From: an uncultured Gammaproteobacteria bacterium | GTDB lineage: Bacteria; Patescibacteriota; Patescibacteriia; Magasanikbacterales; UBA922 | DNA: 64,000 nt | Direction of reading: 5' to 3' | NCBI GenBank assembly: GCA_964345045.1 | Contig: CAYFPM010000001.1 | Location: 172,215 to 236,214, forward strand | In this document: piece after piece, positions 374 through 43,134 of the stretch | Layout of the letters: every line of letters starts with the position of its first letter | How positions within the stretch are numbered: the stretch's first letter is position 1 | Program-made: the position numbers and the translations under genes | The notes under the pieces: generated by a model | Database searches by the model: none | What the model saw: only the letters and a program-made list of their open reading frames with translations | What the model was told of the DNA's origin: nothing

Positions 374-2512
374 ATGAATCTAGAAACTCGCCTTACAGCT
401 CTAAACAAGGTTGGCAAAGTACTGTCTGGCCGACTAAAGAAATTGGGTCTTGTGACTGTAGAAGACCTGCTTTTTTATTTTCCATTTCGCTACGAAGATT
501 ATAGTCAAACCAAAAAAATCGCAGACCTAGAAGATGGAGAAGAAGTAACAATAAAAGGGAAAATAGAAATAATTGCCAATAAACGTAGCCCTAGAAAAAA
601 GATGATTATAACCGAAGCTATAGTAGTGGACGAGACCGATAGACTAAAAGTAGTTTGGTTTGGACAGCCTTTTATCGGCAAAACTTTGAAAGTTGGGGAT
701 ACAGTCTACCTGTCTGGCAAAGTAAAAGATGATCGATTTGGAATGCAGTTGGTGGGGCCGGCTTACGAAAAAGTGACCCCCGATACCCCTTCCCAGCCCT
801 CCCCTAAAAAGGGAGGGGGTTTTGGCTCGGCTCTGACCACGACTCATACTGCCAGGATAGTGCCGATGTATCCGCTAACTGCCGGGGTTACACAAAAACA
901 GATGCGTTTTTTGGTGAGTCAAATTATTGATGTAGCCAAAGTAGTAGATGAGTGGCTGCCAGAGGAGTTGCAAGACCGTGCCGATGTAATGCCACTAGCC
1001 GAAGCGATAGAGATGATTCATTTTCCAGAAAATGCCGAGAGTTTGCGTTATGCCGAACGAAGGTTAAAATTTGATGAATTGTTTATTTTGCAATTGCGGG
1101 CCGAGATGATAAGACAAAATCTAAAAAGATCCAAAGCAGAAAAATTAAAATTTAAAGAACAGGAAATTAAAAAATTTGTAGAGGCTCTGCCGTTTGCATT
1201 AACCAAAGGACAAAAGGTGGCTGCCTGGGAAATTTTGCAAGACATGGAGAAAAGTGAGCCTATGAATAGACTCTTGGAAGGGGATGTGGGAGCTGGTAAG
1301 ACTGTGGTAGCAGCTATGGCTCTCTACAACTGTGCTCTAAACAAATTACAAGCTGTGATTCTCGCCCCAACTGAGATTTTGGCCAAGCAGCATTTTGAGT
1401 CTTTGTGTGAATTGTTACCAGAGGTGAGTATTGGTTTGTTATCTAGATCCGAGCTTTTGGCTAATAACTATCCGCTAAAAGCTAAAAGTAAAGCTAAAAA
1501 GAAAGAAGAATTTTTGGAAGCGATTAAATCCGGACAGATTGAAATAATTGTAGGGACACACGCAGTGATACAAGAAAAAGTTCTGTTTAAAAATCTTGGT
1601 TTGGTGGTGGTAGACGAGCAACACCGATTTGGGGTAGAACAGAGGAAAAAAATTAAAGAAAAATCTGGCAATAAAAAAACTACGCCACACTTTCTCTCTA
1701 TGACAGCCACACCTATCCCAAGGTCTTTTGCCCTTACTATCTATGGCGACCTCGATGTTTCTATTCTAAAAGAAAAACCTGGTGGTAGAAAAGAAATTAA
1801 AACTAGATTGGTCGAGCCAAAAAATCGGCAAAAGGCTTATAATTTTATACGTGAACAAATTAAGTCTGGTCGGCAAGCATTTGTGATTTGTCCGCTTATA
1901 GACAATGAACAAGAAACAAGTGGCAAAGAACAAAATTCTGAAAAGAAATCTGTGCTGGCCGAGTATGACAAGCTTTCTAAAGAAATTTTTCCAGATCTTA
2001 AAATTGATTATTTGCATGGCAAAATGAAAGGAACAGAAAAAGATGAAAAAATGAATAAGTTTGCGGCGGGTGAAACAAACATTCTTATTGCCACTTCGGT
2101 AGTAGAGGTAGGGGTAAATATTCCAAATGCTAGCGTAATGATGATTGAAGATGCTGAGAGGTTTGGTTTGGCTCAGTTGCACCAGTTTCGCGGTAGGGTA
2201 GGGCGTAGTGATCACCAGTCATATTGTTTTGTTTTTTCCGATACAGATACAGACAAAGCCCTCGAGAGGTTGGGATTTTTTGAAAAAAATACCGATGGTT
2301 TCAAACTAGCGGAATATGATCTAGAGGTAAGAGGACCAGGCGAGGTGTATGGCCGGGCCCAAAGTGGTATGATGAATTTGAAATTAGCAACTATGCAAGA
2401 TGTAGAGATTATTAAATTGGCTAGAGAATTGGCTAAAGGGATTGATTTTGAAAATTATAAAATTCTTAAAGAAAAAGTAGAGGAGTGGGAGATTAATACT
2501 CATTTGGAATAA
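374..2512 (+). CDS. recG: ATP-dependent DNA helicase RecG
   Basis: 712 aa. N-terminal wedge/OB region, Walker A GAGKT, DEQHRFG (DEAH-type motif II), QLHQFRGRVGR helicase motif VI. Domain order and length are typical of RecG. Confidence 0.9.
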   Translation: MNLETRLTALNKVGKVLSGRLKKLGLVTVEDLLFYFPFRYEDYSQTKKIADLEDGEEVTIKGKIEIIANKRSPRKKMIITEAIVVDETDRLKVVWFGQPFIGKTLKVGDTVYLSGKVKDDRFGMQLVGPAYEKVTPDTPSQPSPKKGGGFGSALTTTHTARIVPMYPLTAGVTQKQMRFLVSQIIDVAKVVDEWLPEELQDRADVMPLAEAIEMIHFPENAESLRYAERRLKFDELFILQLRAEMIRQNLKRSKAEKLKFKEQEIKKFVEALPFALTKGQKVAAWEILQDMEKSEPMNRLLEGDVGAGKTVVAAMALYNCALNKLQAVILAPTEILAKQHFESLCELLPEVSIGLLSRSELLANNYPLKAKSKAKKKEEFLEAIKSGQIEIIVGTHAVIQEKVLFKNLGLVVVDEQHRFGVEQRKKIKEKSGNKKTTPHFLSMTATPIPRSFALTIYGDLDVSILKEKPGGRKEIKTRLVEPKNRQKAYNFIREQIKSGRQAFVICPLIDNEQETSGKEQNSEKKSVLAEYDKLSKEIFPDLKIDYLHGKMKGTEKDEKMNKFAAGETNILIATSVVEVGVNIPNASVMMIEDAERFGLAQLHQFRGRVGRSDHQSYCFVFSDTDTDKALERLGFFEKNTDGFKLAEYDLEVRGPGEVYGRAQSGMMNLKLATMQDVEIIKLARELAKGIDFENYKILKEKVEEWEINTHLE

Positions 2513-3485: not shown

Positions 3486-3572
3486 CGTCTTTGAGAAACT
3501 ATAGATTTTTGCAACAGACGCTCCAAATTCAAATTTATTTTCTGTACCTTAGTGGTGCAGTTTTTTTATACT

Positions 3573-3601
3573 TGACAAAGACAATTTTTTGCTATATACT
3601 C
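3573..3601 (+). promoter_or_regulatory. Near-consensus sigma70-type promoter: TTGACA, 17-bp spacer, TATACT
   Basis: -35 TTGACA and -10 TATACT with a 17-bp spacer, read directly. About 55 nt upstream of the GC-rich ORF at 3656. Confidence 0.55.
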
Positions 3602-3655
3602 TTGCCAGCCAAAATCTCCAATTACTGGAGTGCGGCCGAAAGGAAACAATAAGAC

Positions 3656-3973
3656 TTGAGCAGCAAAGCAGCTGGAAAAATCAAGGGGCAGGGGACCTTG
3701 CTCCCGATCGTGTTCAAGCCGGTCGAGGGAGACGACCTCCAAGTCGGGTTCGTGGAGCCCAAGTGCGCCCCTACGAACGGGGTCTTCGAGGTCTTGGTTC
3801 GCAAGGGGCGTCGCGATGCAGAGCCGACGTTGATGAGTCTCGACAGCCTCACATTCCAACAGTTCGGACACATCGGGCTCGCCGGCTTCCGTCACGGTGG
3901 TGCCCATACCCCCCGGTGTGACCACAACAACGTCTTGGTCGATGCCCTCCACGGTAGCATGACCGCCAGTTAG
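3656..3973 (+). CDS. hypothetical protein encoded in a high-GC (GC3-rich) segment; TTG start
   Basis: Third-codon positions are almost all G/C in the + frame, which is the coding signature of a high-GC donor. Preceded by the consensus promoter and followed by two hairpins (3985-4030 and terminator 4045-4078). The antisense ORF 3566..3952 is less consistent with the GC3 pattern. Confidence 0.4.
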   Translation: MSSKAAGKIKGQGTLLPIVFKPVEGDDLQVGFVEPKCAPTNGVFEVLVRKGRRDAEPTLMSLDSLTFQQFGHIGLAGFRHGGAHTPRCDHNNVLVDALHGSMTAS

Positions 3974-4044
3974 CTCGAGTAGCCTCGCGTCCGCACAAAG
4001 GATCGTTCTACGATTTTGCGGACGCGAGCGCTTCCATCACAATC

Positions 4045-4078
4045 AAAAAATAAAACCCATAGAATGGGTTTTTTGTTT
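4045..4078. terminator. Bidirectional rho-independent terminator (AAAACCCAT-AGA-ATGGGTTTT, flanked by an A-run and a T-run)
   Basis: Perfect stem with A-run/T-run flanks. Serves the + GC-rich gene and radA (minus strand). Confidence 0.6.
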
Positions 4079-4092
4079 GGTTGAATAAAATT

Positions 4093-4169
4093 CCTCCCCT
4101 ACCAGGGGAGGCTAGGTGGGGTCAAATCGTACACCAGACCCCCTCCAGCTCCCCCTATTAGGGGGAGGG
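4093..4169. repeat. GC-rich modular hairpin repeat, copy 1 (hairpins CCTCCCCTACCAGGGGAGG and CTCCCCCTATTAGGGGGAG)
   Basis: Shares about 50 nt (GGGGGTCTGGnGTACGATTTGACCCCACCTAGCCTCCCCTGnTAGGGGAGG, as reverse complement) with 40813-40901. Its other module matches 20121-20187. Confidence 0.7.
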
Positions 4170-4177
4170 ATTATTTG

Positions 4178-5512
4178 TTAAGTCTGCCTAATCAATTCTT
4201 GAATATTTTTGACACTAATAATTTTTATTTTTTCACTACCAACCTTTCCTCTCGAACTAGTAATAATTTTATTCATCCCTAGCTGCTCACATTCTCTAAT
4301 TCGTTTTTCATTTTGCCGCACACTGCGGATCTCTCCACCTAGGCCTACCTCGCCAAACACGGCTAGGTCTTTGCCCAGGGCTTTGTCTTTGTAGGCGCTA
4401 GCAATAGCCAGAGCCACTGCTAGGTCGGCAGCTGGTTCGTTTGCCTTGACCCCACCAACTACGTTGATATGCACATCGTACTGGCCTAGTTGCAAACCAG
4501 CTCGTCTTTCTAGAACTGCTATTAACACATGAAGTCTATTGATATCAAAACCACTAGCTTTTCGTACTGGGTAACCAAAACTAGTTTTGTTGATTAGGGC
4601 TTGGATCTCTACCAAGATAGGTCTGGTGCCTTCTAGTAAGCATGTAACTATACTACCCGGCACGTCTTCGCCACGTTCTTCCAAAAGAAGCTGAGATGGA
4701 TTTTTAACTTCTTTTAGACCAGCTTCGGTCATATCAAAAATACCGACTTCGTCTGTGGAACCAAATCTATTTTTGCTAGCACGCAAAATTCGTAAGTTGT
4801 GATGCTGGTCTCCCTCTAGATAAAGAACTGTGTCTACAAGATGTTCCAAAGTTTTTGGCCCAGCTACATTGCCGTCTTTGGTAACGTGCCCAATCACTAC
4901 AATCGCAGTTTGGCCAGTTTTGGCAGCTTCCATAAGCTTGGCAGCACAAGCGCGCACTTGCGAAATATTGCCTGGCTCACCATCTACTTCTTCGGACCAA
5001 ATAGTTTGGATAGAATCAACAATAGCCAAAGTAGGCTTTTCTTTTTTTATGGTACTTATAACGGCTTCTACTTTTGTGGCGTTGGCAATTTTCAAACTAT
5101 TGTTTTTTAGACCCAATCTATCGGCTCTTAGTTTGATTTGCTCGGCTGATTCTTCGCCAGAGATGTACAGAGTATTTGGTAGCAAAAAGGAAAGCTGCAA
5201 AGATAGGGTAGACTTGCCAATGCCAGGCTCGCCCCCAAGCAAAATAAAACTACCAGGCACAACTCCACCACCAAGCACTCGGTCTAATTCACTAATATTG
5301 GTATTTGATCTTTTTATATTTGATCCAACCACTTGATTTATATTTTGTACTTCCAAACTTGGGTGTTGGGCTGTTTTAAGGGTTTCATGTTTTGATGATT
5401 TTATGCTTTCTTCTATAGATCCCCACTTGCCACACTCCATACACCTACCAGCCCATTTGGTATATTGGTAGTCACAGTTGGAACAAACAAATATACTATT
5501 ATTTTTTACCAT
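4178..5512 (-). CDS. radA: DNA repair protein RadA/Sms
   Basis: N-terminal C4 zinc finger (CSNCDYQYTKWAGRCMECGKWG), RecA-like Walker A GGEPGIGKSTL, KNRFG motif, C-terminal Lon-like domain. 444 aa. Confidence 0.9.
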   Translation of the reverse strand: MVKNNSIFVCSNCDYQYTKWAGRCMECGKWGSIEESIKSSKHETLKTAQHPSLEVQNINQVVGSNIKRSNTNISELDRVLGGGVVPGSFILLGGEPGIGKSTLSLQLSFLLPNTLYISGEESAEQIKLRADRLGLKNNSLKIANATKVEAVISTIKKEKPTLAIVDSIQTIWSEEVDGEPGNISQVRACAAKLMEAAKTGQTAIVVIGHVTKDGNVAGPKTLEHLVDTVLYLEGDQHHNLRILRASKNRFGSTDEVGIFDMTEAGLKEVKNPSQLLLEERGEDVPGSIVTCLLEGTRPILVEIQALINKTSFGYPVRKASGFDINRLHVLIAVLERRAGLQLGQYDVHINVVGGVKANEPAADLAVALAIASAYKDKALGKDLAVFGEVGLGGEIRSVRQNEKRIRECEQLGMNKIITSSRGKVGSEKIKIISVKNIQELIRQT

Positions 5513-9035: not shown

Positions 9036-10490
9036 TTATTTATTTTTAGAACCTAGTCTAGCAACTTTGCGGTTGGCTAGTTTTTTTCCAGGGACTTTTT
9101 TTCTGGCAGAGCTAGCTTCGACAGCTTTTTTCAACATAGCCGAAGATTCTATCGCATCAAAAGCGTACATAGCAGCTATCAAAAAGATAGTATTGCTTAG
9201 AGCAAATACAATGGCTACCCAGTAAGGCCCGGCGGTCAAAGCTTTTTCTAGTAGGAGTTTAAAATCATCTTGAACATCTTTGTCTTGTCTTTTGTAAAAC
9301 CAAGCAGCTGCCAATATGGTTGGCAAAGTAGCTATGCCGGCGATAACAGGACCAATAACCGGGAAACCAATTGCTGGTATGGCTATTATATCACGGAATA
9401 CACAAAAGATTGAGAGGCTTGTAAAACCATCCAGTTCTCTAGCTTTTTTTCTTTTTTTTCGGGTAGCTTTTTCTTTTTCGGCTTCATCTTCGGCTTCTTC
9501 GGCTTTTCTTTGTCTTTTTTGTTTGCGGCGGTCTCTTTGTAGTTGTTCGGCTGCGGCTTTGTCTTTTTCTGGCGCCGTTGGTTCTTTTTCTTCTTCACCT
9601 TCTTCTTCGGTTGGGGCAGCTTCGGGTTCTGTTTCTTCTGGAGTTGGTTCTATAAAAGGTTTATAAGGTTTTTTTCCTTCTTCTTCCGGGATTTCCTCTC
9701 GAGGCTCAGCTTCTTCTGGTTCTTCTTCGGCTTCGGTTGGGACTTCGTCACTAGGTTCTTCCTCTTCTGGTTTTTCTTCCTCGACTGTGGTTGGGGCTTC
9801 ACCGCTAGGCTCAGCTTCTTCTGGTTCTTTTTTGTCTTCGGTAGGAACTTCGTCACTAGGTTCTTCTGGGAATTGTGTAAGAGGTTCTTCTTCTTTAGCC
9901 ACTGTTGGAATTTCTATACTAGGTTCGGCTGCAATTTCGGGTTCTTCTTTTGTAGGAGTGGGAGGGGCTGCTTCTTCTGGAGCTATTTCTTCTCCAACTT
10001 TTGTTGGGATTTCTTCGGTAGGTTCAACTGGTCCCTCCTCTTCTGCGGTTGGTATTTCAGCTTCTGGTTCAACTGGTGTAACTTCTTCCGTAGGTTCGGT
10101 TGCTTCTTCTATTTTAGGAGTTTCTGTTATTGGGGTTGGTTTGGCTGTTGGTGGGACTTCTGGTTCTTCTTTTTTTGGGATAGAAGGAGCTGCTTTGGGT
10201 GGCATTGGCGGTTCTTCGCCAAGTTCTTCGGGAAAGGCCAAATCAGGGGGAGCTGCGGTTGGTTTTTTTTCTTTGGTTTTTTCTTTTTCAACTACTTCGG
10301 TTTCAAATTCTAGATCTTTAAGTTCTTCTTCTATTTGTTTTTCCAAATCACTCTCAAGATTGGCTCCCAGTTGTTCTAGGGCTGCTTGGTCTTTGCGACG
10401 AGTTTCTCTTTTCTCTTTTTGCAGGCGCTCTGCTAATTCTTGCTCGTCTAATTCTTCATCATTTTTTTTCGCCAAAGAATTAGCGGCCAT
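9036..10490 (-). CDS. highly acidic E/P/K-rich repeat protein with C-terminal transmembrane helices
   Basis: 484 aa with reiterated EEPSDEVPTE / PEEAEP units. The DNA shows imperfect tandem repeats of about 96 bp around 9690-9880. The C-terminus carries 2-3 hydrophobic helices. Confidence 0.55.
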   Translation of the reverse strand: MAANSLAKKNDEELDEQELAERLQKEKRETRRKDQAALEQLGANLESDLEKQIEEELKDLEFETEVVEKEKTKEKKPTAAPPDLAFPEELGEEPPMPPKAAPSIPKKEEPEVPPTAKPTPITETPKIEEATEPTEEVTPVEPEAEIPTAEEEGPVEPTEEIPTKVGEEIAPEEAAPPTPTKEEPEIAAEPSIEIPTVAKEEEPLTQFPEEPSDEVPTEDKKEPEEAEPSGEAPTTVEEEKPEEEEPSDEVPTEAEEEPEEAEPREEIPEEEGKKPYKPFIEPTPEETEPEAAPTEEEGEEEKEPTAPEKDKAAAEQLQRDRRKQKRQRKAEEAEDEAEKEKATRKKRKKARELDGFTSLSIFCVFRDIIAIPAIGFPVIGPVIAGIATLPTILAAAWFYKRQDKDVQDDFKLLLEKALTAGPYWVAIVFALSNTIFLIAAMYAFDAIESSAMLKKAVEASSARKKVPGKKLANRKVARLGSKNK

Positions 10491-10498
10491 ATACTATT

Positions 10499-13018
10499 TT
10501 AAATTAGTTTGTATTGGTTGGCAGAATGAGTGAGGGTATAATTTTTTTTGCGTTTGTCTTTTTGCAAAATATTTATAAGCAATTCGTGCAAAACATTTTG
10601 GACTATATTGTCCAAGTTTCTCACGCCAGTGTCTTCTGTATAAGCGTTTTGGGCTAGCATTTTTATAACCTTGTTGTCTGGAACAATATTAAGATTTTGG
10701 GTTGATTTTAATTTTTGACTCATTTCTTCAATATTGTTTTTGATAATAGTTTCTACATGATTGGATTCTAGCGGATAAAAAGGAATAATATTTTGAATTC
10801 TAGCGGTGAGAGGATTACCAAATTCTGTTTTTATGGCATGCATTACACTTTTGTGAATTTCTTGGTTGTCTGATTTTTTTGTATTTCCAAATCCAATTCC
10901 GGCCGATTTGTAAAGTTCGGCACCAACATTACTAGTTAAGACAATTATAGAATGGTGTAGATATATTTTTTTACCGGCACTGTCTGTTAGTTCGCCTTCG
11001 TCTAGCATCTGCAAAAGCAATTTTTGAACATCTTTGTGAGCCCGATCAAATTCGTCAAAAAGCAAAACTGCATAAGGACGTTTTTTTAATTCGTCGGTAA
11101 AACGGTTTCTTTCTTTGTGACCAATGTATCCGGCGGGGGAACCAAGTAATTTTGATACACCGTGCGACTCAGCAAATTCGCTCATGTCTAGCTTTACCAA
11201 AGCTTTTTCATCTTTGAAAAGTTCCAAAGCTAGCTGCTTGGCCAAAGCTGTTTTGCCAACCCCACTAGGGCCTACAAACAAAAATGAAGCAAATGGTTTT
11301 TTATTGTTATGAAGTTTTAGATGAGATTGTTTTAAACTTTTTACCAAATTATTTATAACCGGATCTTGGCCAACTATATTCTTTTTCAAGTTTTCTTCGA
11401 TGGTGGATAGTTGTTCCCATTCATTTTTTAAAAGAAAATCTTTTGGGATATCTATTCTTCTGGCTACTACCTCTGCTACGTCTGCTTTGCCAACTTTGTC
11501 TTTTCTGTTTTTGGTTTTGCCACTTTGTTTTTTGGCTAGCATTATTTTTTGTCTAATTTCTTTTTCTTTGTTTTTTATAGTAAGTGCCAAATCAAATTTT
11601 TCGTGTTTTATAGCTTCTTCTTTTTGTTGTTCTATGTCTTCCAATTGTAGTTCTAATTTTTGTAATTTTTGTTCACCAAGAGGTGTTTTTCTTTTGGTGC
11701 GTACAGAGGCAGAAGCTTCGTCAATAAGATCAATAGCTTTGTCTGGCAAAAAATTGTCGTGAATATAGCGTTCGCTGTATTCTACCGCCGCTGCTATGGC
11801 ATCTTTGTCGATTTTTACGTTGTGAAATTCTTCGTAGTGTGGTTTGATTCCTTCCAAAATTTCTTTGGCTTCTTCGGTACTTGGTTCTTCTACATAAATT
11901 GGTTGAAATCTGCGTTCTAGAGCCGGATCACTGGTAATATGTTTTTTGTATTCGTCTAGGGTTGTAGCGCCTATACAATGCAATTTGCCTCGGGCCAAGG
12001 CTGGTTTCAATATGTTGGCAGCATCCATAGTGCCTTGGTTGGATCCAGCGCCAATAATGTTGTGGATTTCGTCTATAAAAAGAATGTAATCTGGTTTGCC
12101 AGAAACTTCGTCTATAATTTGCTTGAGCCTAGATTCAAACTCCCCACGATAAATTGTTCCAGCAATTAAGAGGGTTAGGTCTAGCGAAAGAATTTTTTTC
12201 TTTTTCAAAATATCTGGAACGTCTCCGGCTACAATACGTTTTGCTAGACCCTCTACAATAGCTGTTTTTCCTACACCTGGTTCTCCTAGTAAGACAGGAT
12301 TATTTTTGGTACGACGAGATAGTATATGAATTAATCTTTCGATTTCTTCTTCGCGACTAATAACCGGATCAGAGTTTTTGGCAATTTTTTTGTCGGTTAG
12401 ATTGGTGGCAAACATAGCTGTAGCCCCTGGAGATTTTTTGCTTTTGTTTTTTTGCAAACTTGGTAAGGGCGGCATTGGAGGGGGGTTGTCTTCTATCATG
12501 TCTTGCATTTGGTCCATGGTTTCTTCTATATCTTCGGCGTTTGGGAAACGATTGGTACTTTGCAAAACATTTTCTACTTCTTCTAGTACAGTTTCAAAAT
12601 TGATATTTTGGATAGAAAAAAGTTTGCTGACTTCTAAATCTGGATTTTTGGCAATGGCAGCCAAAAGGTGTTCGGTACCAATATAATTTTGTTCTCTTTC
12701 GTAGGCTATTAGCATAGCGCGCTCCAAAATTTTCTTGGTTTCGTTTGATAGTTCGGGCAGGGTAGTGGTAATGGCTTTTTTCTCTTTTACCACTGGTTCT
12801 ATTTTTTTCTCTTCCAAAAATTTTAGAATTATTTTGGTATCTAGTTTTAGTCTAAAAAGAATTTCGGAGGCAACAGCTCCGGTTTCTTCGGCCAAAGCCA
12901 ACAAAATATGCACGGGTTTTACTCTGGGGTGAGACAAACTGGCTGCAATAGAAATAGATCTGGCGATGGTGTTTTTGAGATGACTGGAGAAATTTTCTAA
13001 GAATTTTTCTGGTTTCAT
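10499..13018 (-). CDS. clpC: Clp ATPase chaperone, ClpC-type (two AAA+ modules, short UVR-like linker)
   Basis: Clp_N repeats. Walker A in D1 (GEPGVGKTA) and D2 (GPSGVGKTA). The linker between modules is about 50 aa ([22 protein letters not shown]), which is ClpC-like rather than the long ClpB M-domain. 839 aa. Confidence 0.8.
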
Positions 13019-13034
13019 AAGGACGCAGATTTCA

Positions 13035-13120
13035 CTGATTTTATCGAAAGATTACGCAGATTTTTATGCTAAATTTATAATCTGCGTAATCAAAATAAAT
13101 CTGAGAAATCAGTATTTAAA
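13035..13120. promoter_or_regulatory. Nested inverted repeats (candidate operator) in the clpC upstream region
   Basis: Outer ACTGATTT...AAATCAGT, inner TTACGCAGAT-N25-ATCTGCGTAA, plus a third direct ACGCAGAT copy at 13022-13029. Lies in the divergent promoter region between clpC and the PMM/PGM gene. Confidence 0.35.
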
Positions 13121-13210
13121 ATTGCCTAAATTATGCGGATAGTATATATTTGTAGGGGTATAAAGTCAACTGGGACTTTTGCTATTATTTAGCTAATTTA
13201 AAAGTTTTTT

Positions 13211-14572
13211 ATGCTTCCAAGCACTTTGTTTCGCAATTATGATATAAGAGGGGAATATGGCCAAGAATTAACAGCTGAAGCTGTTTATACTATTGCCAAA
13301 GCCTATGCCAAGCTAGCCAAGCCCAAAAAAGTTATTATTGGCTCAGACGCCAGAATTTCTTCGCCAGAATTAAAAGCCGCTGCTACCAAAGGCTTGCTAG
13401 AAATGGGGGTAGATGTAAGGGATGTAGGTATGGTGTCTACAGATGTAGTTTACTTTGCCACTTGGCACGAAAAATGTGATGGGGGAATTATGATTACGGC
13501 TTCTCACATGCCCAAACAGTTTAATGGCATGAAATTCTTGCGTTTGAATGACAAAGGTATGCTTGAGCCAATAGGTAAAGGTATGGGAATGGAAGAATTG
13601 GAACGAATAGTAAACGAAATGAATAAAGATGAAAAGGCAGAAAAGAATGGTGAATTGGTAGAAGAAAAAATTTGGGACAAGTACATTGATTTTGTAAAAA
13701 GTTTTGTAGACATGGATAGTATAAAAGGGTTGAAAGTGGTAATGGATGCAGGCAATGGTATGGGGGGGCTAGTAGCAGAAAAACTTTTTGCAGGGCTTGG
13801 TATAGAAATTGTGCCAATGTTTTTTGAACCAGATGGCACTTATCCAAATCACGAGCCAAATCCTTTTATTGCCAAAAATAGATTAGATATCGAAAATAAA
13901 ATTAGAGAAACTGGAGCAGACATTGGGATAGCTTGGGATGCAGATTGTGATCGTTGCTACTTTTTGGACGAGAATGCCAAGTTTGTAAACGGCGATTTGA
14001 TTACTGCTTTCTTGGCAATTGATTTTATAAAGAAAAATCCAGGCACAGCTATTGTCTACGATTTGCGTTCTTCTTGGGCTGTAAAAGATTGGATAGAAAA
14101 ACTAGGAGGCAAAGCTATAATTGAAAAAGTTGGTCACTCTTATATAAAGGCTACTATGGCCAAGCACGATGCAGTGTTTGGGGGCGAGGTCAGTGGTCAT
14201 TATTATTTTTCCAAAAACAAGTACATGGACAATGGTTTTATACCAGCGGTAATTGTGCTAGAAATGCTAGCCAAGTCTGGAAAGAAGTTTTCCGAAATGA
14301 TTGCTGAGCTAGGTGAATACAATTTGTCTGGGGAGATTAATTTTAAAGTTGCCGACACGCAAGTTATTTTGGAAAAAATAGAAGCAGCTTTTGCTGATGC
14401 TAGCTTAAATAAGCTAGATGGTTTATCTGTAGACTATGCTGATTGGCATTTCAATGTGCGTCCTTCGGCCAACGATCCAGTGCTGCGACTTAATCTCGAA
14501 GCCAAGAGTGCAGAGCTTTTGCAAGAGAAGCTAGAAGTTGTAAGAGGGATTATTGGTGGGGAGGAGGTTTAG
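13211..14572 (+). CDS. phosphomannomutase/phosphoglucomutase family protein
   Basis: Active-site serine loop ITASHMP (TASHNP-type), metal-binding DADCDR loop, four-domain length of 453 aa. Confidence 0.75.
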   Translation: MLPSTLFRNYDIRGEYGQELTAEAVYTIAKAYAKLAKPKKVIIGSDARISSPELKAAATKGLLEMGVDVRDVGMVSTDVVYFATWHEKCDGGIMITASHMPKQFNGMKFLRLNDKGMLEPIGKGMGMEELERIVNEMNKDEKAEKNGELVEEKIWDKYIDFVKSFVDMDSIKGLKVVMDAGNGMGGLVAEKLFAGLGIEIVPMFFEPDGTYPNHEPNPFIAKNRLDIENKIRETGADIGIAWDADCDRCYFLDENAKFVNGDLITAFLAIDFIKKNPGTAIVYDLRSSWAVKDWIEKLGGKAIIEKVGHSYIKATMAKHDAVFGGEVSGHYYFSKNKYMDNGFIPAVIVLEMLAKSGKKFSEMIAELGEYNLSGEINFKVADTQVILEKIEAAFADASLNKLDGLSVDYADWHFNVRPSANDPVLRLNLEAKSAELLQEKLEVVRGIIGGEEV

Positions 14573-14578
14573 TCTTTT

Positions 14579-15271
14579 ATGGAAGAAAAAACTACAAATG
14601 TTTCGGCAGGTGAACTGAATTATGATTCTTACGAATCAAATATTTATGACGAAGATATTGTTCGTTCGATTCCTGGACATGAAGAACTGCACCAAGAAAT
14701 AGAAAAAGTTATAGAAGAGAAAAAACCAGAAAGAATTTTAGAGCTGGGTGTGGGGACTGGTCTTACTTCGGAAAAGATTTTAAAGATTGTACCGGAGGCA
14801 AAATTAATTGTAGTTGATTTTTCCGGGCAGATGCTAAGTGGTGCAAAAAAGAGATTAGAAAATTTCGAGGTTGAGTTTATTTTGGGAGATTATTCGGAAA
14901 TTGATTTTGGAAAAGATTTTGATATGGTGGTGTCTATAATTGGTATACATCATCAAAAACACGAAGGCAAGAAAAAACTTTTTAAAAAGATTTTTGAATC
15001 TTTAAAAGATGGTGGAGTGTTTGTCTTTGGAGATCTTATGACTTATGAAGACAAGAAAAAAGCTGCTTTTAACGATGCCAAGCATTTTCATCACTTGGTA
15101 GAGAATGCTAGAAGTGAAGAAGCTTTGGAAGACTGGGCACATCATCACAAATACTTAAATTTGTTAGCGCCATTAAAAGACCAAACTAAGTGGCTAGAAG
15201 AAATTGGTTTTTCTAAGGTAGAAAAACTTTATGAAAAATTTAATACAGTGCTTTTGGTGGCTACGAAATAA
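14579..15271 (+). CDS. class I SAM-dependent methyltransferase
   Basis: Motif I ILELGVGTGLTS. About 230 aa Rossmann-fold methyltransferase. Confidence 0.6.
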   Translation: MEEKTTNVSAGELNYDSYESNIYDEDIVRSIPGHEELHQEIEKVIEEKKPERILELGVGTGLTSEKILKIVPEAKLIVVDFSGQMLSGAKKRLENFEVEFILGDYSEIDFGKDFDMVVSIIGIHHQKHEGKKKLFKKIFESLKDGGVFVFGDLMTYEDKKKAAFNDAKHFHHLVENARSEEALEDWAHHHKYLNLLAPLKDQTKWLEEIGFSKVEKLYEKFNTVLLVATK

Positions 15272-15272
15272 A

Positions 15273-15303
15273 AAAATCATCCTGAGTCAGGATGATTTTT
15301 TTA
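15273..15303. terminator. Bidirectional terminator hairpin (ATCATCCTGA-GT-CAGGATGAT with A/T runs)
   Basis: Perfect palindrome between convergent genes (methyltransferase + / DMT-like -). Confidence 0.6.
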
Positions 15304-15705
15304 TAAAGAAAGTAAGATTATCGCAGATACTCCAAGGAGTATTCCTGCCAATTTTGTAAGAGTTATTTTTTCGGCCAAAAATAGCACGCCAAGCAGAATT
15401 GTGACTAGCAAGGCTAAGTTTCTAATAGGTACTACCACATGTAGTTTGCCTGTTTTTAGAGCTAAAAAAAAGAATACTTGAGCCAAACCTGCTAGCAAAC
15501 CACCAATGATTAAGAATTTTAAATCTCCGGTGTTAAATTTTGTTTTTTCTATAATTGCCAATGATCCTAGAATCACCAAGTGACTAGCAATAAAAATACT
15601 GGCTCCAATTCCAACCGAGAAATTTGGTGTTCCTAATTTGTAAAAGAAAACTCCCGAACCAAAGAAAACCATGGCCAAAAGAGAGTACAAAATAGATGCA
15701 GACAT
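15301..15705 (-). CDS. small 4-TM membrane protein, EamA/DMT-like
   Basis: 134 aa with four predicted helices, resembling a single EamA domain. Confidence 0.4.
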   Translation of the reverse strand: MSASILYSLLAMVFFGSGVFFYKLGTPNFSVGIGASIFIASHLVILGSLAIIEKTKFNTGDLKFLIIGGLLAGLAQVFFFLALKTGKLHVVVPIRNLALLVTILLGVLFLAEKITLTKLAGILLGVSAIILLSL

Positions 15706-15777
15706 AATTTAAAAAATGTTATATAGAACACAAAGAGATCCTTCGACTCCGCTGCGCTTCGCTCAGGATGACTTTTG

Positions 15778-16341
15778 CTAGAATATTTTGTTTTTTAATT
15801 CTTCCAAATTATTGTTTAGTTTACTCTTGGTAACTAGATCGGAGATTTCTTTGCCTAGAAAGTCGTCGCTAAGGACAGCTTCTACAAATTCGTCAAAATT
15901 AACTTCTTTAACTTCTATAATCTCGCCAGCATCTAGTTTTTGTTCGGCTACTTTGTGGCAGCCCTTGGCAATGTAGAGGTAAATATGCCAATCCATTTTG
16001 GTATAGGGCTCTACTACTTTTACCAGCTCCCAGCTCTTGGCCGCTAGCCCAGCTTCTTCTAGCAGTTCTCTTTTGGCAGCGTCCATTGGGTCTTCGCCTT
16101 CGTCTACTCGGCCACCAAATAGAGTTAAAAAATTTTTCTTGGTGGGTTGAGATTCTAGCCCAATAAAAACTTTTTCATTTTCGCCAGTGGCAATTATTTG
16201 TACAGTGTCCGGACGCTTGAGCATTTCAAAAATTTCTTTGGAACCATCGAACATTTCTTGCTCCCACTGGTAGGTGTCAAACATTACTCCTTTAAAAACT
16301 AATTTGGCGTTGTCTGGGATTTTCATAAGCGCTGATTTCAT
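15778..16341 (-). CDS. NUDIX hydrolase
   Basis: Nudix box GGRVDEGEDPMDAAKRELLEEAGL (GX5EX7REUXEEXGU). Confidence 0.7.
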   Translation of the reverse strand: MKSALMKIPDNAKLVFKGVMFDTYQWEQEMFDGSKEIFEMLKRPDTVQIIATGENEKVFIGLESQPTKKNFLTLFGGRVDEGEDPMDAAKRELLEEAGLAAKSWELVKVVEPYTKMDWHIYLYIAKGCHKVAEQKLDAGEIIEVKEVNFDEFVEAVLSDDFLGKEISDLVTKSKLNNNLEELKNKIF

Positions 16342-16371
16342 TGATTATATATAGATTACACAAATTGTTTG

Positions 16372-16890
16372 TTACATTTTTCTAGAGTCATAAGCCCAGT
16401 GGAGTAGGGCTTGGCGTTGTTTGGGGCGGCAGGTGGTGTCTCCTTTGCGACAATTTTTCTTTATTTGGGCAGCGTGTCTTCTTATAGCTTTCCAGCGTTT
16501 TATTTGTCTTTGGTCTTCTTCTGGCAAACGCCTACCCATGTAGTAGCGACAGTACCATTGGAACCAGCCGCGTGGATCATGTTCTTCGTTGATCCAGCCT
16601 TTTTTTCTCCAAACAGAAATAGGTTGTGAAGCCCGAATCCCAAAGTAGTTTAGACTATCATCGTGTTTGTCTTTTGACATTTTGGCACGAGCAAACCAGC
16701 TTTTTGGGAATTCTTTTTGGCAATCTGTTAGATACTGTCCACCAAATACTCCAAGTTCTAGCATCTCTTTGGGGGTGAGCTGTGGTTTGAATTCTTTATC
16801 AAAATTTTTGCCTACGGGTTCGGTTAGTTCGTATTTGTAACCTTTTTGTCGGGTGTCAGTTATTTTGATTATTTTTTTCTTCCCTCGCAT
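16372..16890 (-). CDS. conserved hypothetical protein (basic, Trp/Cys-rich C-terminus)
   Basis: 172-aa ORF with GWFQWYCRYYMGRR and Cys pairs. No family assigned from sequence alone. Confidence 0.45.
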   Translation of the reverse strand: MRGKKKIIKITDTRQKGYKYELTEPVGKNFDKEFKPQLTPKEMLELGVFGGQYLTDCQKEFPKSWFARAKMSKDKHDDSLNYFGIRASQPISVWRKKGWINEEHDPRGWFQWYCRYYMGRRLPEEDQRQIKRWKAIRRHAAQIKKNCRKGDTTCRPKQRQALLHWAYDSRKM

Positions 16891-16916
16891 ATTTTTATCA
16901 TGTTATTTTTGCCTGT

Positions 16917-16998
16917 TATTGCGAGGGAGCGATAGCGACCGTTGCAATCTCGTAAAGAAAGTATTAGAGATTGCTACGCCCTTCGGGCTCGCAATGAC
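16917..16998. repeat. Inverted pair of ~35-nt elements (GATTGCnACnCCCTTCGnnCTCGCAATGAC family) forming a long hairpin
   Basis: ATTGCGAGGGAGCGATAGCGACCGTTGCAATCTC ... GAGATTGCTACGCCCTTCGGGCTCGCAATG. Related single copies occur at 20040-20105 and (partial) 15737-15775. Confidence 0.4.
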
Positions 16999-17009
16999 AG
17001 AATAGAAAA

Positions 17010-17735
17010 CTATCTTTTTAATTTTTTACTTAACTTTTTGATTTCTTTGCCAATGCTAAAATTTAATTTGTCATCTATATAAGCGGCAACTAGTGCCATA
17101 ATAGTAAATAGTAGAGCAAATTGGCAATAGATAGAAGGGAACTGAGCCTCTAGGGCTGGGAAGATCATAATAAGCAAAAGTGGGGGAGCAATGGTAATAA
17201 GAACGGTAATCATGATTACTAAATGGGAGATTATTTTTCTTTTGTTGCTTTCGTTTTTGATTTGGAATAATAGATAAAAAAGCATGGCGACTATAAAAGA
17301 GAAATAATAAAGCCAATAAACAATAGCCGGCCAGCCACTAATTTCTGGAGTGGTAAAAAAGTTTTGTGAGATTATAAACAAATGGCCACATTCGGCGTTA
17401 GCAACAAAATTATTGTTGGCCAAAGCTATAACGACAAAAATAAAAACCGGTAGATAAACTAAAAATCGGTTGAATTTTTTTTTGGTATAAACCAATACAA
17501 AGTCCAAGCCCAAGGCTGGCAAGAAAGTATAGGTGATAAAGCCAATTTTGCCCCAGGTCTGGTAGTCGCCAGTGGTACAAAACATAAATTCGCTAAATTG
17601 GTAGAAGCCAAGAGTAAAAATAAACAGAGCCAAAAATCTGGCAAAGGTAGATTTTTGGTAGCGGATATAGATAAAGGCGGCAACGGCAAATTCTATGGCC
17701 GCAGTCGATAAGGATATTTTTGGGGTGTAACACAT
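17010..17735 (-). CDS. polytopic membrane protein, hypothetical
   Basis: 241 aa with about 7 hydrophobic helices. Confidence 0.45.
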   Translation of the reverse strand: MCYTPKISLSTAAIEFAVAAFIYIRYQKSTFARFLALFIFTLGFYQFSEFMFCTTGDYQTWGKIGFITYTFLPALGLDFVLVYTKKKFNRFLVYLPVFIFVVIALANNNFVANAECGHLFIISQNFFTTPEISGWPAIVYWLYYFSFIVAMLFYLLFQIKNESNKRKIISHLVIMITVLITIAPPLLLIMIFPALEAQFPSIYCQFALLFTIMALVAAYIDDKLNFSIGKEIKKLSKKLKR

Positions 17736-17775
17736 ATTTTGGTTGATTAGTTGATTGGTTTATTGGGCTAATATT

Positions 17776-18783
17776 TTATAAAAATAAATTAAACAAATAA
17801 CCGATTAATAAAACTTGAGGAACAGTAATAATTGGCAGCCAAATAGCTGTACGTTTGCCGATGTTGGTCCAGATTAATCCGATCTCTGTGTAGTCTGTTA
17901 CTGCCCCAGCCATAAGGAATACAAAAGGGTTCCCAAGTGAACCAACTTGTTTATAAATTTCAAAGGCTATTGGAGAACTACCTTCGCTACAGATTTCTAT
18001 AATGGTAGCTACAACAAGGGTCAAGAGCAATCCCCAAAAACTTGCATTGAGGTAATGTACAAATACATGGCCTGGTACATAGGCTTGGATAAATACTGCT
18101 GCCAAAAAACCAATTAGAATCCACCACAAAACCATGTTTGAAAGGCTGACTGTGCCGGCTAGCACACCATGCAAACTTTGTTTAAAATTAAAGTTTTTAA
18201 ATCTTTCCCAGTTATATTTTTCTTGCAAATTAATATTTAAACTACTTTCTACAAGTTTTAATTTTTCTAGCAAAGTAAAAGTAAACCCAGTTATAACCGC
18301 AACTAGCATGGCTGCCAAAATAAAGTAGACAGCTCCCCATCCAAAAAAGCTAAAAAGTAAAATAGTAACAGGTAGATTGGCCCAGGGGGATGCAAGTAGA
18401 AATGTAATAATGGCTGGAATGCTGGCGCCTTTTTTGTAGAGTTGAATAGAAATTGCCAGTATTCCGTGCGAGCAGGCAGAGAGCAAGAATCCAGCGATAA
18501 CTGCAAAAAGGATTGAGCTTTTTTTCTTTTGTCCTAGGTATTTGTAAATAAATTGATCGGGAACAAAGTAATCGATAATGCCACCAAAAAACAGACCTAG
18601 CAAAACTGCCCACCAAATTAGTTTGGCGTAGCTAAGAAAACTTTGGTTTAAGTTTTCTAGACCGGGTATAAATGAAACTGCAAATAGAATAATAAATATT
18701 AAGCTAGTAATTTTTAACTTTTTGCCCAGCTTTATTTTTGGCTGTCTTTTTGTGTTTGGGTTGTGGCAGCTATGATTCTCCAT
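17776..18783 (-). CDS. putative permease (UPF0718/DUF318-like, two repeated CS-x-G...P half-domains)
   Basis: SACSHGILAIS...IPAIITFL and CSEGSSPIAFEIY repeats within a polytopic membrane protein. Confidence 0.45.
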   Translation of the reverse strand: MENHSCHNPNTKRQPKIKLGKKLKITSLIFIILFAVSFIPGLENLNQSFLSYAKLIWWAVLLGLFFGGIIDYFVPDQFIYKYLGQKKKSSILFAVIAGFLLSACSHGILAISIQLYKKGASIPAIITFLLASPWANLPVTILLFSFFGWGAVYFILAAMLVAVITGFTFTLLEKLKLVESSLNINLQEKYNWERFKNFNFKQSLHGVLAGTVSLSNMVLWWILIGFLAAVFIQAYVPGHVFVHYLNASFWGLLLTLVVATIIEICSEGSSPIAFEIYKQVGSLGNPFVFLMAGAVTDYTEIGLIWTNIGKRTAIWLPIITVPQVLLIGYLFNLFL

Positions 18784-18870
18784 AGTTGTCGTAGTTCTCG
18801 TTCATTAATTGACTAGAATGTTTTTATGTCCATCTATTTTATCACAATTTGGCTTTATTATTGACATTTT

Positions 18871-19227
18871 TTGTTTTTTCATTTAGTTTCGATAGTGGAG
18901 GTGTCCATGGACAATTTGCAAAAACTCATCAGTGGTTTTGAGCGAGATGTACGCTATCCGATGCATACTCTGCGAGCCGAAGTGGGGAGGTCTACAGCTT
19001 CTCAGCAGATTCAAAAGATGGGGACAGCGGCCTTTGCGGCGATTGCCGAGCACTTGGCAGCAATCCCTCCTGGAGATCGTGATTCAAATCTATGCGAAGC
19101 TTGGATCCTGTTGTTGTGTTGGATGGGGCAGGATCTGAATATCGCTAGAGAAGATATGCCAAATGGTATCACTCACCAGTTTACCGACGATTGGATCGAG
19201 TGGGCTCGTAGCAACGCAGCCAACTAA
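18871..19227 (+). CDS. hypothetical protein (GC-rich island gene; the true start may be the internal Met at 18907)
   Basis: GC3-rich frame. A hairpin terminator follows at 19284-19316. Confidence 0.4.
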   Translation: MFFHLVSIVEVSMDNLQKLISGFERDVRYPMHTLRAEVGRSTASQQIQKMGTAAFAAIAEHLAAIPPGDRDSNLCEAWILLLCWMGQDLNIAREDMPNGITHQFTDDWIEWARSNAAN

Positions 19228-19407
19228 GGGGATTCCCGTAGCTACAATTCTTTTACCGGCAAGAGAGGCTCGGGAAAATTCAAAAACAGCTTTTCGTAAA
19301 GGCTGTTTTTGTTTGGTATAATTAAAAAGTTAGCCACAGCTCCCCCTTGACAAAAAGGGGAGAATATATTAACAATAAGTTAGGCGTAAAGCCAAAAGGA
19401 GTCGTTC

Positions 19408-19929: not shown

Positions 19930-20120
19930 CTTCTTTCTAACAGAAAATCCGACGCTAATTGAAATGTGGCGCGTCGGAAAAATTCAAAAGCAACCTAAAG
20001 ATAGGTTGCTTTTGATTTTTAGATTTTACAAAAGTCGATATGTGAGATTGCCACCCTTCGACTTCACTCAGGGCAGGCTCGGACACAACGATTCTAGCAA
20101 TGATAGTAAAGAGAGGTTGT

Positions 20121-20187
20121 CTACTCCCAGACCCCCTCCCCGATGCTTCGATCGGGGCAGGCCAGCTCCCCCTAATAGGGGGAGAGT
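20121..20187. repeat. GC-rich modular hairpin repeat, copy 2
   Basis: Contains CCCCGATGCTTCGATCGGGG and CTCCCCCTAATAGGGGGAG hairpins. The module GCCTGCCCCGATCGAAGCATCGGGGAGGGGGTCTGG is shared (reverse complement) with 40813-40901. Confidence 0.7.
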
Positions 20188-22402: not shown

Positions 22403-22600
22403 ATGGCATTGAGAAATCGAGGAAGCGACGGGGTTGGCTACCAGCACGTGAACGTCAACAATGGTGGCTACACGAGCGTGGTCGTCCACGATGATGGGAG
22501 GGTGACCTCCTCGGGCTACGAGGTCCGCGACGAGCGGGTCGCCGAGCAGGCCAGGCGGGAGGCCGCCAAGGACAACGGCAAGGGCCGCCGCAGAGGCTGA
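22403..22600 (+). CDS. tiny GC-rich hypothetical protein (65 aa, Gly-rich)
   Basis: AAGGAG SD 9 nt upstream. Third positions almost all G/C. A perfect 15-bp-stem terminator follows immediately. Confidence 0.35.
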   Translation: MALRNRGSDGVGYQHVNVNNGGYTSVVVHDDGRVTSSGYEVRDERVAEQARREAAKDNGKGRRRG

Positions 22601-22604
22601 TCTG

Positions 22605-22656
22605 GGGGCCGGGTCGACGTACAACGTCGACCCGGCCCCATTCAATTATTTTTTAG
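22605..22656 (+). terminator. Strong hairpin terminator (GGGGCCGGGTCGACGT-ACAA-CGTCGACCCGGCCCC, then a T-run)
   Basis: Perfect 15-bp GC stem read directly from the sequence. Confidence 0.55.
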
Positions 22657-40653: not shown

Positions 40654-40687
40654 GCAAGTTTTGTCATTTATAAGTTTTATATTTTAA

Positions 40688-40719
40688 GACAGACCCTGCA
40701 TAGGTCTGTCTTTTTTTTG
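40688..40719 (+). terminator. Rho-independent terminator of dnaE (AGACAGACC-CTGCAT-AGGTCTGTCT plus T8)
   Basis: Read directly. Confidence 0.65.
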
Positions 40720-40722
40720 AAG

Positions 40723-40810
40723 ACCACGTTGGCTCCATAGTCCACGCAGTGGCTGTGGAGCCGAGATGCTGCAATATGGCTCCACAGGGCTACGCCACTA
40801 TGGAGCCGGC
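40723..40810. repeat. Nested inverted repeats (GGCTCCATAG/CTATGGAGCC and CTGTGGAGCC/GGCTCCACAG) forming an extended stem-loop structure
   Basis: Four copies of a 10-mer in the order A, B', B, A'. Adjacent to hairpin repeat copy 3. Confidence 0.5.
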
Positions 40811-40812
40811 TT

Positions 40813-40901
40813 GAGGGGGAGCAGGCCTGCCCCGATCGAAGCATCGGGGAGGGGGTCTGGAGTACGATTTGACCCCACCTAGCCTCCCCTGATAGGGGAG
40901 G
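40813..40901. repeat. GC-rich modular hairpin repeat, copy 3 (longest; contains both shared modules)
   Basis: GAGGGGGAGCAGGCCTGCCCCGATCGAAGCATCGGGGAGGGGGTCTGGAGTACGATTTGACCCCACCTAGCCTCCCCTGATAGGGGAGG matches copies 1 and 2 piecewise. Confidence 0.7.
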
Positions 40902-43060: not shown

Positions 43061-43134
43061 TAAATCAAGCTTAGTCTAACAAAAAAGTGGCCTTGTGGCC
43101 ACCTGATTGATTGCTATTATATATAGCGAAGAAT

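Follow-up and report, generated by a model that had tools for sequence, protein, structure and literature searches.

Three-block hairpin repeats of probable BoxC/PIT type in a CPR bacterium and its Magasanikbacteria relatives

The BoxC/PIT elements of E. coli have been on record since the 1990s and are to our knowledge still without an assigned function or mode of spread. Holder et al. 2015 (NAR, PMC4666352), citing Hoyne/Maher 2000 and the BoxC papers of the 1990s, treated BoxC and PIT as the same element as TM_ECO, a motif of the pattern CCCTCNCCC N3-6 GGGNGAGGG N3 GGGNGAGGG that is present in >260 genomes and forms, as an isolated strand, a class II purine-motif intrastrand triplex in vitro as judged by CD and NMR (PMC4666352). 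TM_ECO is reported to be strictly intergenic, accompanies local instability and is frequently found in inverted pairs, always of one type A and one type B, and the E. coli PIT elements are without promoter or terminator activity and unlinked to transposons (PMC4666352). The purine motif is cited by these authors as unable to form in RNA, and because they found no evidence of a stable triplex in vivo (PMC4666352), the structure may never form in cells.

The repeats described here lie in the window, the whole stretch of 64,000 nt that was analysed, which carries a LOOT RNA and whose RecG is nearest to Candidatus Magasanikbacteria proteins (60-68% identity), which makes the host a member of the CPR/Patescibacteria. 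The initial annotation had placed three mosaic hairpin copies at 4093-4169, 20121-20187 and 40813-40901, where all three were indeed found, and the palindromes that it quoted are exact (CCTCCCCTGATAGGGGAGG at 40883-40901, CTCCCCCTAATAGGGGGAG at 20166-20184 and CCCCGATCGAAGCATCGGGG at 40830-40849). The sharing of modules also held up: module 1 is common to copies 1 and 3 (33-nt core, 0 mismatches, no other copy, chance 0.00 over 100 shuffles), module 2 (36 nt) to copies 2 and 3 alone (0 mismatches, chance expectation 0.00), and module 3 underlies direct-repeat family D10 in the window. The two longest inverted repeats of the window, I1 (66 nt, 92%) and I2 (47 nt, 98%), join copy 1 with copy 3 and copy 2 with copy 3, respectively. 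The hairpin pattern has 9 overlapping matches in the window against 0.38 expected. At 63-66% GC the copies agree with the ~65% first given for them, against a background of 39.8% over 1-43.7 kb and not the ~38% that had been stated. The window also includes a 12.8-kb GC-rich (61%) mobile island, at the borders of which no att-like direct repeats of >=10 nt were found; outside this island, 7 of the 12 perfect GC-rich hairpins are members of the repeat family.

Copy 1 recurs in a second contig of the same sequencing project (L003; ENA PRJEB17505) and copy 3 in another (L002), with the right half of copy 3 also in L001, all in surroundings 99.9-100% identical to those of the window. Copies 1 and 3 are thus no assembly artefact, since they recur in separate contigs of the same project. 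The Logan contig behind L001 ends inside copy 3, and the repeat accounts for this contig end. The parts of the three copies, their neighbours and a degenerate unit inside recG are as follows:

788..817, plus strand: degenerate unit in recG, in frame, with leader CCTTCCC, linker AG and hairpin CCCTCCC-CTAAAAA-GGGAGGG
4052..4072, no strand assigned: terminator-like hairpin by copy 1, outside the repeat
4093..4111, minus strand: copy 1 unit a, hairpin hpA CCTCCCCT-ACC-AGGGGAGG, perfect 8-bp stem
4115..4122, plus strand: copy 1 unit a, G-strand third block GGTGGGGT, CTA (3 nt) after hpA
4123..4137, no strand assigned: copy 1 spacer between two third blocks, GGGGTC/GACCCC able to pair
4138..4145, plus strand: copy 1 unit b, C-rich leader ACCCCCTC, mirrors the hpD C-arm (8/8, shuffle frequency 0.007)
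4146-4148: copy 1 unit b, linker CAG
4149..4167, plus strand: copy 1 unit b, hairpin hpD CTCCCCCT-ATT-AGGGGGAG
19984..20015, no strand assigned: terminator-like hairpin by copy 2, outside the repeat
20040..20110, plus strand: GC-rich CCCTTCGACTTCACTCAGGGCAGGCTCGG and an AT-richer stretch upstream of copy 2, family membership uncertain
20131..20138, plus strand: copy 2 leader ACCCCCTC (8/8, shuffle frequency 0.01), with the hairpin 27 nt downstream
20138..20157, plus strand: copy 2 linker hairpin B CCCCGAT-GCTTCG-ATCGGGG (module 2 of the initial annotation), perfect 7-bp stem
20166..20184, plus strand: copy 2 hairpin hpD CTCCCCCT-AAT-AGGGGGAG
40686..40712, plus strand: terminator-like hairpin by copy 3, outside the repeat
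40720..40812, no strand assigned: ~85-nt GC-rich imperfect palindrome GGCTCCATAGT...ACTATGGAGCC beside copy 3, not a triplex unit
40814..40821, minus strand: copy 3 unit b, one hpD arm (AGGGGGAG on plus, CTCCCCCT on minus)
40830..40849, minus strand: copy 3 unit b, linker hairpin B
40849..40856, plus strand: copy 3 unit b, GAGGGGGT as third block, which reads ACCCCCTC on minus
40872..40879, plus strand: copy 3 unit a, leader ACCCCACC (8/8; 0/300 shuffles)
40880-40882: copy 3 unit a, linker TAG
40883..40901, plus strand: copy 3 unit a, hairpin hpA CCTCCCCT-GAT-AGGGGAGG

All three copies are built from one kind of unit, in which a C-rich leader and a linker precede a hairpin; the hairpin has its C-rich arm first, then 2-7 nt of loop and a G-rich arm. 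Units are 33-40 nt long, or up to ~64 nt when the linker is long, and the linker is either 3 nt or 15-31 nt folding as its own hairpin B; the sequence of the long linker varies between copies and relatives yet is always self-complementary. All hairpins of the family begin with the C-rich arm, and of the distinct hairpins ~22 have this order against ~4 with the G-rich arm in front. Copy 1 comprises two units of different subtypes on opposite strands, tail to tail, with unit a reading leader, C-arm and G-arm on the minus strand. Copy 2 is a single unit with a hairpin-B linker identical to that of copy 3. Copy 3 repeats the dimer build of copy 1; it has hairpin B for a linker, and one of its hairpins is truncated, as the partner arm of hpD is missing; the ~85-nt palindrome (40720-40812), which has no second copy within the window, occupies the expected place of this arm. 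In terms of the modules first described, module 3 is the duplex hairpin with GGGGGTCTGG as its third block (third strand), module 2 lengthens the linker (second loop) by a self-folding stretch, and module 1 consists of two third blocks tail to tail, from two units so placed, and hairpin A. A sequence resembling CCCTTCGACTTCACTCAGGGCAGGCTCGG, CCCCTTCGACAAGCTCAGGGCAAGCTC, is the linker of a unit in a viral contig (L049). A UUCG-tetraloop reading of hairpin B was ruled out on inspection, as the closing pairs do not fit.

The hairpins of the initial annotation are real, but it overlooked the third block, the C-rich leader that co-varies with the arm. Such a leader lies on one side of every family hairpin and mirrors the C-arm. 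Copy 1 reads CCTCCCCT-ACC-AGGGGAGG-CTA-GGTGGGGT on its G-rich strand, where a perfect third strand in antiparallel orientation (G*G:C and T*A:T) comes after the hairpin, the corresponding ~35-nt G-strand sequence being CCTCCCCTACCAGGGGAGGCTAGGTGGGGT; GGTGGGGT matches arm AGGGGAGG at 8/8 positions by the antiparallel triad rule, which was equalled in 0/300 flank shuffles. We scanned the family hairpins of the window, its flanks and the Magasanikbacteria loci for mirror blocks, allowing leader C for arm C and leader A or T for arm T, with flank shuffles as the control. A block obeying the triad rule, 2-5 nt or 15-31 nt from the hairpin, flanks all family hairpins scanned except the degenerate recG unit, whose leader matches at only 6/7 positions (shuffle frequency 0.22), and one unit for which the scan misplaced the block. 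Among the hairpins scored, 28 have a significant block; the match is complete (k/k) in 24 of them and off by one position in the remaining 4, and it is 8/8 in all four complete hairpins of copies 1-3. Flank-shuffle frequencies are 0-0.04 for family hairpins, whereas unrelated hairpins stay at chance (0.2-1.0).

A tally of 20 units, compiled by hand from the scan output, comprises 170 positions, of which 167 conform to the purine-motif triad rule (124 C:C, 30 T:A, 13 T:T and 3 violations). It covers 11 arm types, two of them from E. coli, each with its own matching leader, as in the arm/leader pairs CCTCCCCT/ACCCCACC, CTCCCCCT/ACCCCCTC, CTCCCTCCCTT/AACCCACCCTC and CCCCTCTCTT/AACTCACCCC. This mirror co-variation of leader and arm places the family with the E. 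coli BoxC/PIT/TM_ECO repeats, although it could instead have been inherited from a few founder sequences and not reflect selection. Leaders carry A opposite an arm T at 30 of 43 positions, which breaks the pyrimidine motif (C-rich strand) and fits the purine/GT motif (G-rich strand). Since the purine motif is cited as unable to form in RNA (PMC4666352), we infer that the constraint is probably one on single-stranded DNA.

The alternative that the copies are functional RNA hairpins, which would terminate transcription in both directions or stabilise the 3' ends of transcripts from the flanking genes, has to be weighed against this pattern. All three copies are in intergenic gaps, as first annotated, and each is 16-150 nt from a canonical terminator-like hairpin: copy 1 lies between the recG-side ORFs and radA, copy 2 separates a GC-rich ORF from the ORF at 20302, and copy 3 has dnaE and prs on its two sides, the bordering genes being convergent or co-directional. 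This placement at gene ends by terminators speaks for the RNA reading, as do the outer hairpins, which are followed by T-rich sequence and were flagged as terminator-like, the strong predicted folds (single-strand folding z of -4.0 to -4.2 for copy 1 and -2.0 to -3.2 for copies 2 and 3) and the units of phage contigs that come after stop codons. The terminator reading is weak, though, because a canonical terminator is already present at each site, further copies sit in frame in recG and folC, where termination would harm, and the E. coli PIT is inactive as promoter or terminator (PMC4666352). In addition, the first hairpin met from prs is without a T-run on the transcribed strand, no Rfam family matches, and the prevalence of A opposite arm T is that of a purine-motif DNA triplex on the G strand, a motif that cannot form in RNA (cited in PMC4666352), and not of the pyrimidine motif. 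We therefore regard a role as RNA hairpins as quite improbable. Copies 1 and 2 adjoin GC-rich, gene-poor patches (3486-4050 and 18.9-20.1 kb). A conserved RNA gene in the GC-rich recG-radA gap was ruled out, as there is no similarity among four genomes.

The resemblance to BoxC extends beyond the mirror block. A BoxC query has matches in 5409 of 5426 E. coli genomes, at a median of 17 places each, and one E. coli BoxC dimer (L053) reads CCCCTCACCC-TAA-CCCTCTCCCC-AAA-GGGGCGAGGGG, nearly equal to the recG inserts of two loci, L045 and L054. The units of the window have the same three blocks (pyrimidine stem, purine stem and mirror block), with 6/8 G:C pairs in their stems and loops of 3 nt (2-7 nt in relatives). 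The second loop measures 3 nt in both units of copy 1 and in unit a of copy 3; in copy 2 it is 27 nt long and folds as hairpin B, a linker also present in unit b of copy 3. Inverted pairing of two subtypes is found in copies 1 and 3 and in a Magasanikbacteria locus (L046 3076-3148), each joining an CCTCCCCT-type unit (CTCCCCT in L046) to an CTCCCCCT-type one. Neither the window nor any of the CPR loci matches the published TM_ECO consensus, with its 9-nt stems; it is matched only by the E. coli locus (L053) and two viral contigs (L050 and L052), and the inserts of relatives approach it (CCCCTCTCC, CCCTCTCC).

Further copies, which the initial annotation had expected, occur both elsewhere in the genome and in relatives. 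Within the ~84 kb formed by the window and its 10-kb flanks, units are present in recG (788-817, encoding ...SQPSPKKGGG...), inside folC in the 10 kb upstream (L039), with an hpA-like hairpin directly after folC, and between rplJ and rplL in the 10 kb downstream (L043). A pattern scan of 185,579 reference genomes (CCAGACCCCCTCC N0-30 GCTCCCCCT) returned 28 loci, ~20 of which complete the hairpin with AGGGGGAG, which the pattern does not require. They come from a Magasanikbacteria MAG, a 35% GC MAG labelled Gammaproteobacteria and many rumen Bacteroidaceae/Prevotellaceae MAGs; as the scan forced the leader and C-arm sequences, likeness to the Bacteroidaceae elements beyond the hairpin is partly built in. 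The dimers of the Gammaproteobacteria-labelled MAG are identical in kind to those of the Magasanikbacteria MAG. Both low-GC MAGs have dimers of ~190 nt that fill intergenic gaps in the order hairpin D, hairpin B, GGAGGGGGTCTGG, an AT-rich core of ~100 nt, CCAGACCCC.., hairpin B and hairpin D or A. The copies of the window are miniatures of these dimers: the spacer of copy 1 (4123-4137) occupies the place of the ~100-nt AT-rich core, and L046 3076-3148 is a 73-nt mini-dimer built like copy 1. None of the CPR loci derived from the pattern scan shows synteny with the window, and they are therefore unusable for comparison of orthologous sites.

Units also occur immediately after stop codons in five GC-rich (56-63%) phage contigs, where their unforced extensions obey the mirror rule by our reading. 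The core of module 1, GGTGGGGTCAAATCGTAC, and that of module 2 are both absent from viral contigs, and seven JGI metagenome matches to GGTGGGGTCAAATCGTAC were rejected as chance matches, all without hairpins. Rfam (gathering threshold and E <= 10; window and six loci of relatives) has no family on the elements, a concatenated six-frame translation of a composite element against a protein database gave nothing at E <= 1, and our literature search returned no paper tying such repeats to CPR or citing project accession PRJEB17505. Their presence in GC-rich phage contigs, together with the 12.8-kb island and the GC-rich, gene-poor patches that border copies 1 and 2, could suggest that the copies are remnants of horizontally acquired GC-rich DNA, for example of the 61% GC island type, that were copied passively and constitute no resident family. 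Against this, the island contains zero units, the copies are 92-100% identical to one another in differing flanks, in relatives at 34-37% GC copies with AT-rich cores are numerous and GC-rich patches absent, and single intragenic units lie without foreign flanks; such an origin seems most improbable to us.

Gain and loss of units can be followed in recG and folC. Gene order around recG is kept in three other Magasanikbacteria loci. One of these (L047) is without an insert at loop 1 of RecG, where the window, L045 and L046 have leader-plus-hairpin units of +17, +13 and +13 codons, each of another subtype; at loop 2 there are units in L045 and L046 and none in the window or L047. FolC has 0 extra codons (L047), ~10 (L046) or ~19 (the window genome) at a single site, and behind folC there is a full mini-dimer in L046, a lone hairpin in the window genome and no gap in L047. 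Among RecG orthologues, loop-1 inserts called by peptide pattern are present in ~15 of 120, scattered over a quick neighbour-joining tree with at least 11 state changes. In-frame insertion in conserved genes, absent from orthologues, is behaviour like that of Rickettsia palindromic elements (RPE), and is seen at both RecG loops and in FolC, with recG 788-817 as the instance within the window itself.

The cleanest comparison is between P0043 and P0063 (92% protein identity), whose sole difference in units is ACCTCACCCCAGCCCTCTCCTTTACATGGAGAGGGA, one complete unit of 36 nt and the only internal indel across 3.5 kb aligned at 81% nucleotide identity. This filled/empty pair shows that what comes and goes is one whole three-block unit. 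No target-site duplication is visible at the site (flanks GTTGTT|...|ACATTT versus GTTGTC|GAACAA); the AGCT...AGCT at dimer edges, being itself palindromic, is uninformative on target duplication.

These observations bear on the initial reading of the repeats as REP/MITE-like. The dispersed modular family of that reading stands, and we find relatives of it and gain or loss of whole units; a tagged REP or a classical MITE does not stand. Under a REP/BIME- or MITE-like explanation, the hairpins would be moved in trans by a RAYT or IS transposase, with a third block that is incidental. The copies are indeed dispersed, GC-rich, palindromic, mosaic and mainly intergenic in both orientations, the ~190-nt inverted dimers of relatives with their AT-rich core resemble REP doublets or MITEs, and intragenic REPs are known, often in replication and repair genes. 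However, the GTAG/CGTC tag that defines the REP superfamilies is absent at the three copies (flanks CTAG, CCAG, AATT and GGAT) and stands at no hairpin foot, so that membership of REP fails, and the family is not a classical MITE because filled and empty sites differ by one 36-nt unit that is asymmetric and shows neither terminal inverted repeats nor a target duplication. Mirror co-variation of leader and arm is likewise foreign to both, no transposase gene adjoins any copy in the ~84 kb of genome or in the 8-22 kb loci of relatives, and a Y1 transposase is absent from all of these. We consider movement of this kind unlikely.

We conclude that the family is probably one of potential intrastrand-triplex repeats, of the BoxC/PIT type, whose behaviour is that of selfish or neutral DNA. 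The units encode nothing, are gained or lost whole and accumulate in intergenic gaps and, in frame, in protein loops, which is what one would expect of such repeats at the DNA level and not of regulatory signals. When the G-rich strand becomes single-stranded during replication, repair or transcription, the hairpin could form and its purine arm be joined by the third block, in antiparallel orientation, through G*G:C and T*A:T or A*A:T triads. That this folding takes place in vivo we infer, the in vitro demonstration being of the E. coli element alone (PMC4666352). As to spread, our best and tentative guess is that single-stranded DNA at forks or repair gaps undergoes a structure-dependent event, brought about by a trans-acting enzyme or by capture during repair.

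More speculatively, and with considerable doubt on our part, BoxC/PIT units may be pan-bacterial, extremely small insertion units of ~36 nt that enter DNA as complete three-block modules and pass between phyla (Patescibacteria, rumen Bacteroidaceae, Enterobacteria and phages), with the triplex fold of the G strand recognised or selected at insertion and the same surface loops of CPR RecG and FolC hit repeatedly. If so, the filled and empty sites of RecG and FolC would provide a natural system in which to study the spread of repeats that have been orphans for thirty years. New here are the CPR host, the in-frame RecG and FolC copies and the clean filled/empty pair with its 36-nt unit. The three-block design and its co-variation are kept in a distant, small, low-GC CPR genome, essential genes tolerate in-frame units, and the units account for many odd "PSPxKGEG"-type peptide inserts in CPR proteins. 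The A-for-T pattern of the leaders points to a DNA structure of the G-rich strand and away from one in RNA.

Several known systems share part of this behaviour. Yeast mitochondrial GC clusters and organellar double-hairpin elements are short GC-rich palindromes in a small AT-rich genome and sometimes intragenic; the clusters are organellar, and their likeness to the present family is one of analogy only. RPE are palindromic selfish DNA of 100-150 bp that inserts in frame in the genes of small genomes and adds a peptide segment, and we know of no triplex-type third block described for them, the likeness lying in behaviour alone, namely units in frame inside protein genes. The ~190-nt forms of relatives, with inverted ends and an AT-rich core in intergenic gaps, recall MITEs, from which the family is set apart in that a lone 36-nt unit, asymmetric in build, is gained or lost; neither a target duplication nor a parent IS was found. 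With REP/BIME and RAYT-moved REP doublets (Di Nocera et al. 2013, PMC3733652) it shares short GC-rich palindromes in mosaic clusters, head-to-head and tail-to-tail dimers, a location downstream of genes and occasional copies inside replication or repair genes, but unlike these it has no tag, possesses a co-varying third mirror block and is accompanied by no RAYT in the loci read.

The closest likeness is to BoxC, in the three G/C-rich blocks with a first loop of 3-6 nt and, in the short forms, a second loop of 3 nt, in the inverted pairs of two subtypes, in small internal deletions of dimers that retain the hairpin, in loci that vary between relatives and in the lack of coding capacity or a known transposase. 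The family differs in its 8-nt arms (CTCCCCCT and CCTCCCCT), in a linker that may be a self-folding hairpin of 15-31 nt, in the ~100-nt AT-rich core enclosed by the dimers of relatives and in its host, a 40% GC CPR bacterium. Unlike BoxC, which according to Holder et al. is always intergenic and has no link to mobile elements, it is also found in frame within genes and in phage contigs. Given the missed consensus, the long linkers and the intragenic copies, we regard it as a relative of the BoxC kind and not as the same element.

A 12.8-kb island (43086-55921) in the window has a GC content of 61% against 40% for the genome. The island has the look of a foreign mobile element that has become integrated. 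The following genes were identified in it:

43728-45344 (+), AAA_21+DUF4435 protein
49202-49867 (-), SprT-like protein
50183-51277 (-), DnaG-like primase
51498-52847 (-), TrwB/FtsK-like ATPase
54346-55995 (+), large serine recombinase

One assembly ends at the left edge of the island, and an independent contig runs across it. No direct repeats of at least 10 nt were found at the island borders. The recombinase gene is directly adjoined by an ORF of 1300 amino acids (56098-60000, minus strand), whose Pfam matches comprise acetyltransferase (GNAT) domains only. Just beyond the right end of the window, at 11000-19300 of the locus that includes the 10 kb downstream (L043), lies a putative second integrated element encoding a Zot-like protein, an ArdC-N-like protein, a rolling-circle Rep, a second large serine recombinase, and a GIY-YIG protein.

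Nearly 700 nt between the recG-side ORFs and radA (3486-4178) are without a called gene on the matching contig; parts of 3486-4050 reach 63% GC, a long hairpin and a terminator close the region, and its ORFs have no Pfam match. It is not conserved at this position in three related genomes, where other, unrelated sequence is found. A 484-amino acid ORF (9036-10490, minus strand), with no Pfam match on record, is rich in imperfect repeats with a period of 51-54 nt (direct-repeat families D1, D2, and D6). At 22605-22639 there is a perfect 14-bp GC hairpin, GGGGCCGGGTCGAC-GTACAAC-GTCGACCCGGCCCC, within a 70% GC patch (22463-22646) overlapping a small ORF that has no Pfam match. A LOOT RNA at 60227-60355 (minus strand) scores 78 bits against a gathering threshold of 46.4, and another copy is present in a Magasanikbacteria locus (L029, 4290-4414).

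Pairs of adjacent small GC hairpins were found upstream of the window and in two other Magasanikbacteria loci with conserved gene order around recG:

L039 7915-7944, ∼1.7 kb upstream of the window start
L047 9446-9536
L045 5734-5763

In L039 and L047, the pairs are embedded in sequence resembling a tRNA 3' end (GGTTC-hairpin-hairpin-GATTCC...GAGAGCACA), and in L047 this arrangement is tandemly repeated. These paired hairpins are a repeat type distinct from the BoxC-like units (C-rich leader, linker, and hairpin) and are conserved across these genomes.

Another short GC-rich in-frame insert (…ACPEPGRRG…) occurs in folC of the Magasanikbacteria MAG JBDRSF01 (L045, 1-744), at a FolC site different from that of the other inserts; the other three genomes lack it. 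In rumen Bacteroidaceae, the same leader-plus-hairpin unit is found in L009, L013, L015, L021, L024, L027, L031, and other rumen loci, where two units, the second inverted, face each other across a spacer of ∼50 nt. The inner flanks of these pairs, AGTGGAATG and GGTGACCACC, are conserved. Taken together, these occurrences point to a large family in rumen Bacteroidaceae.
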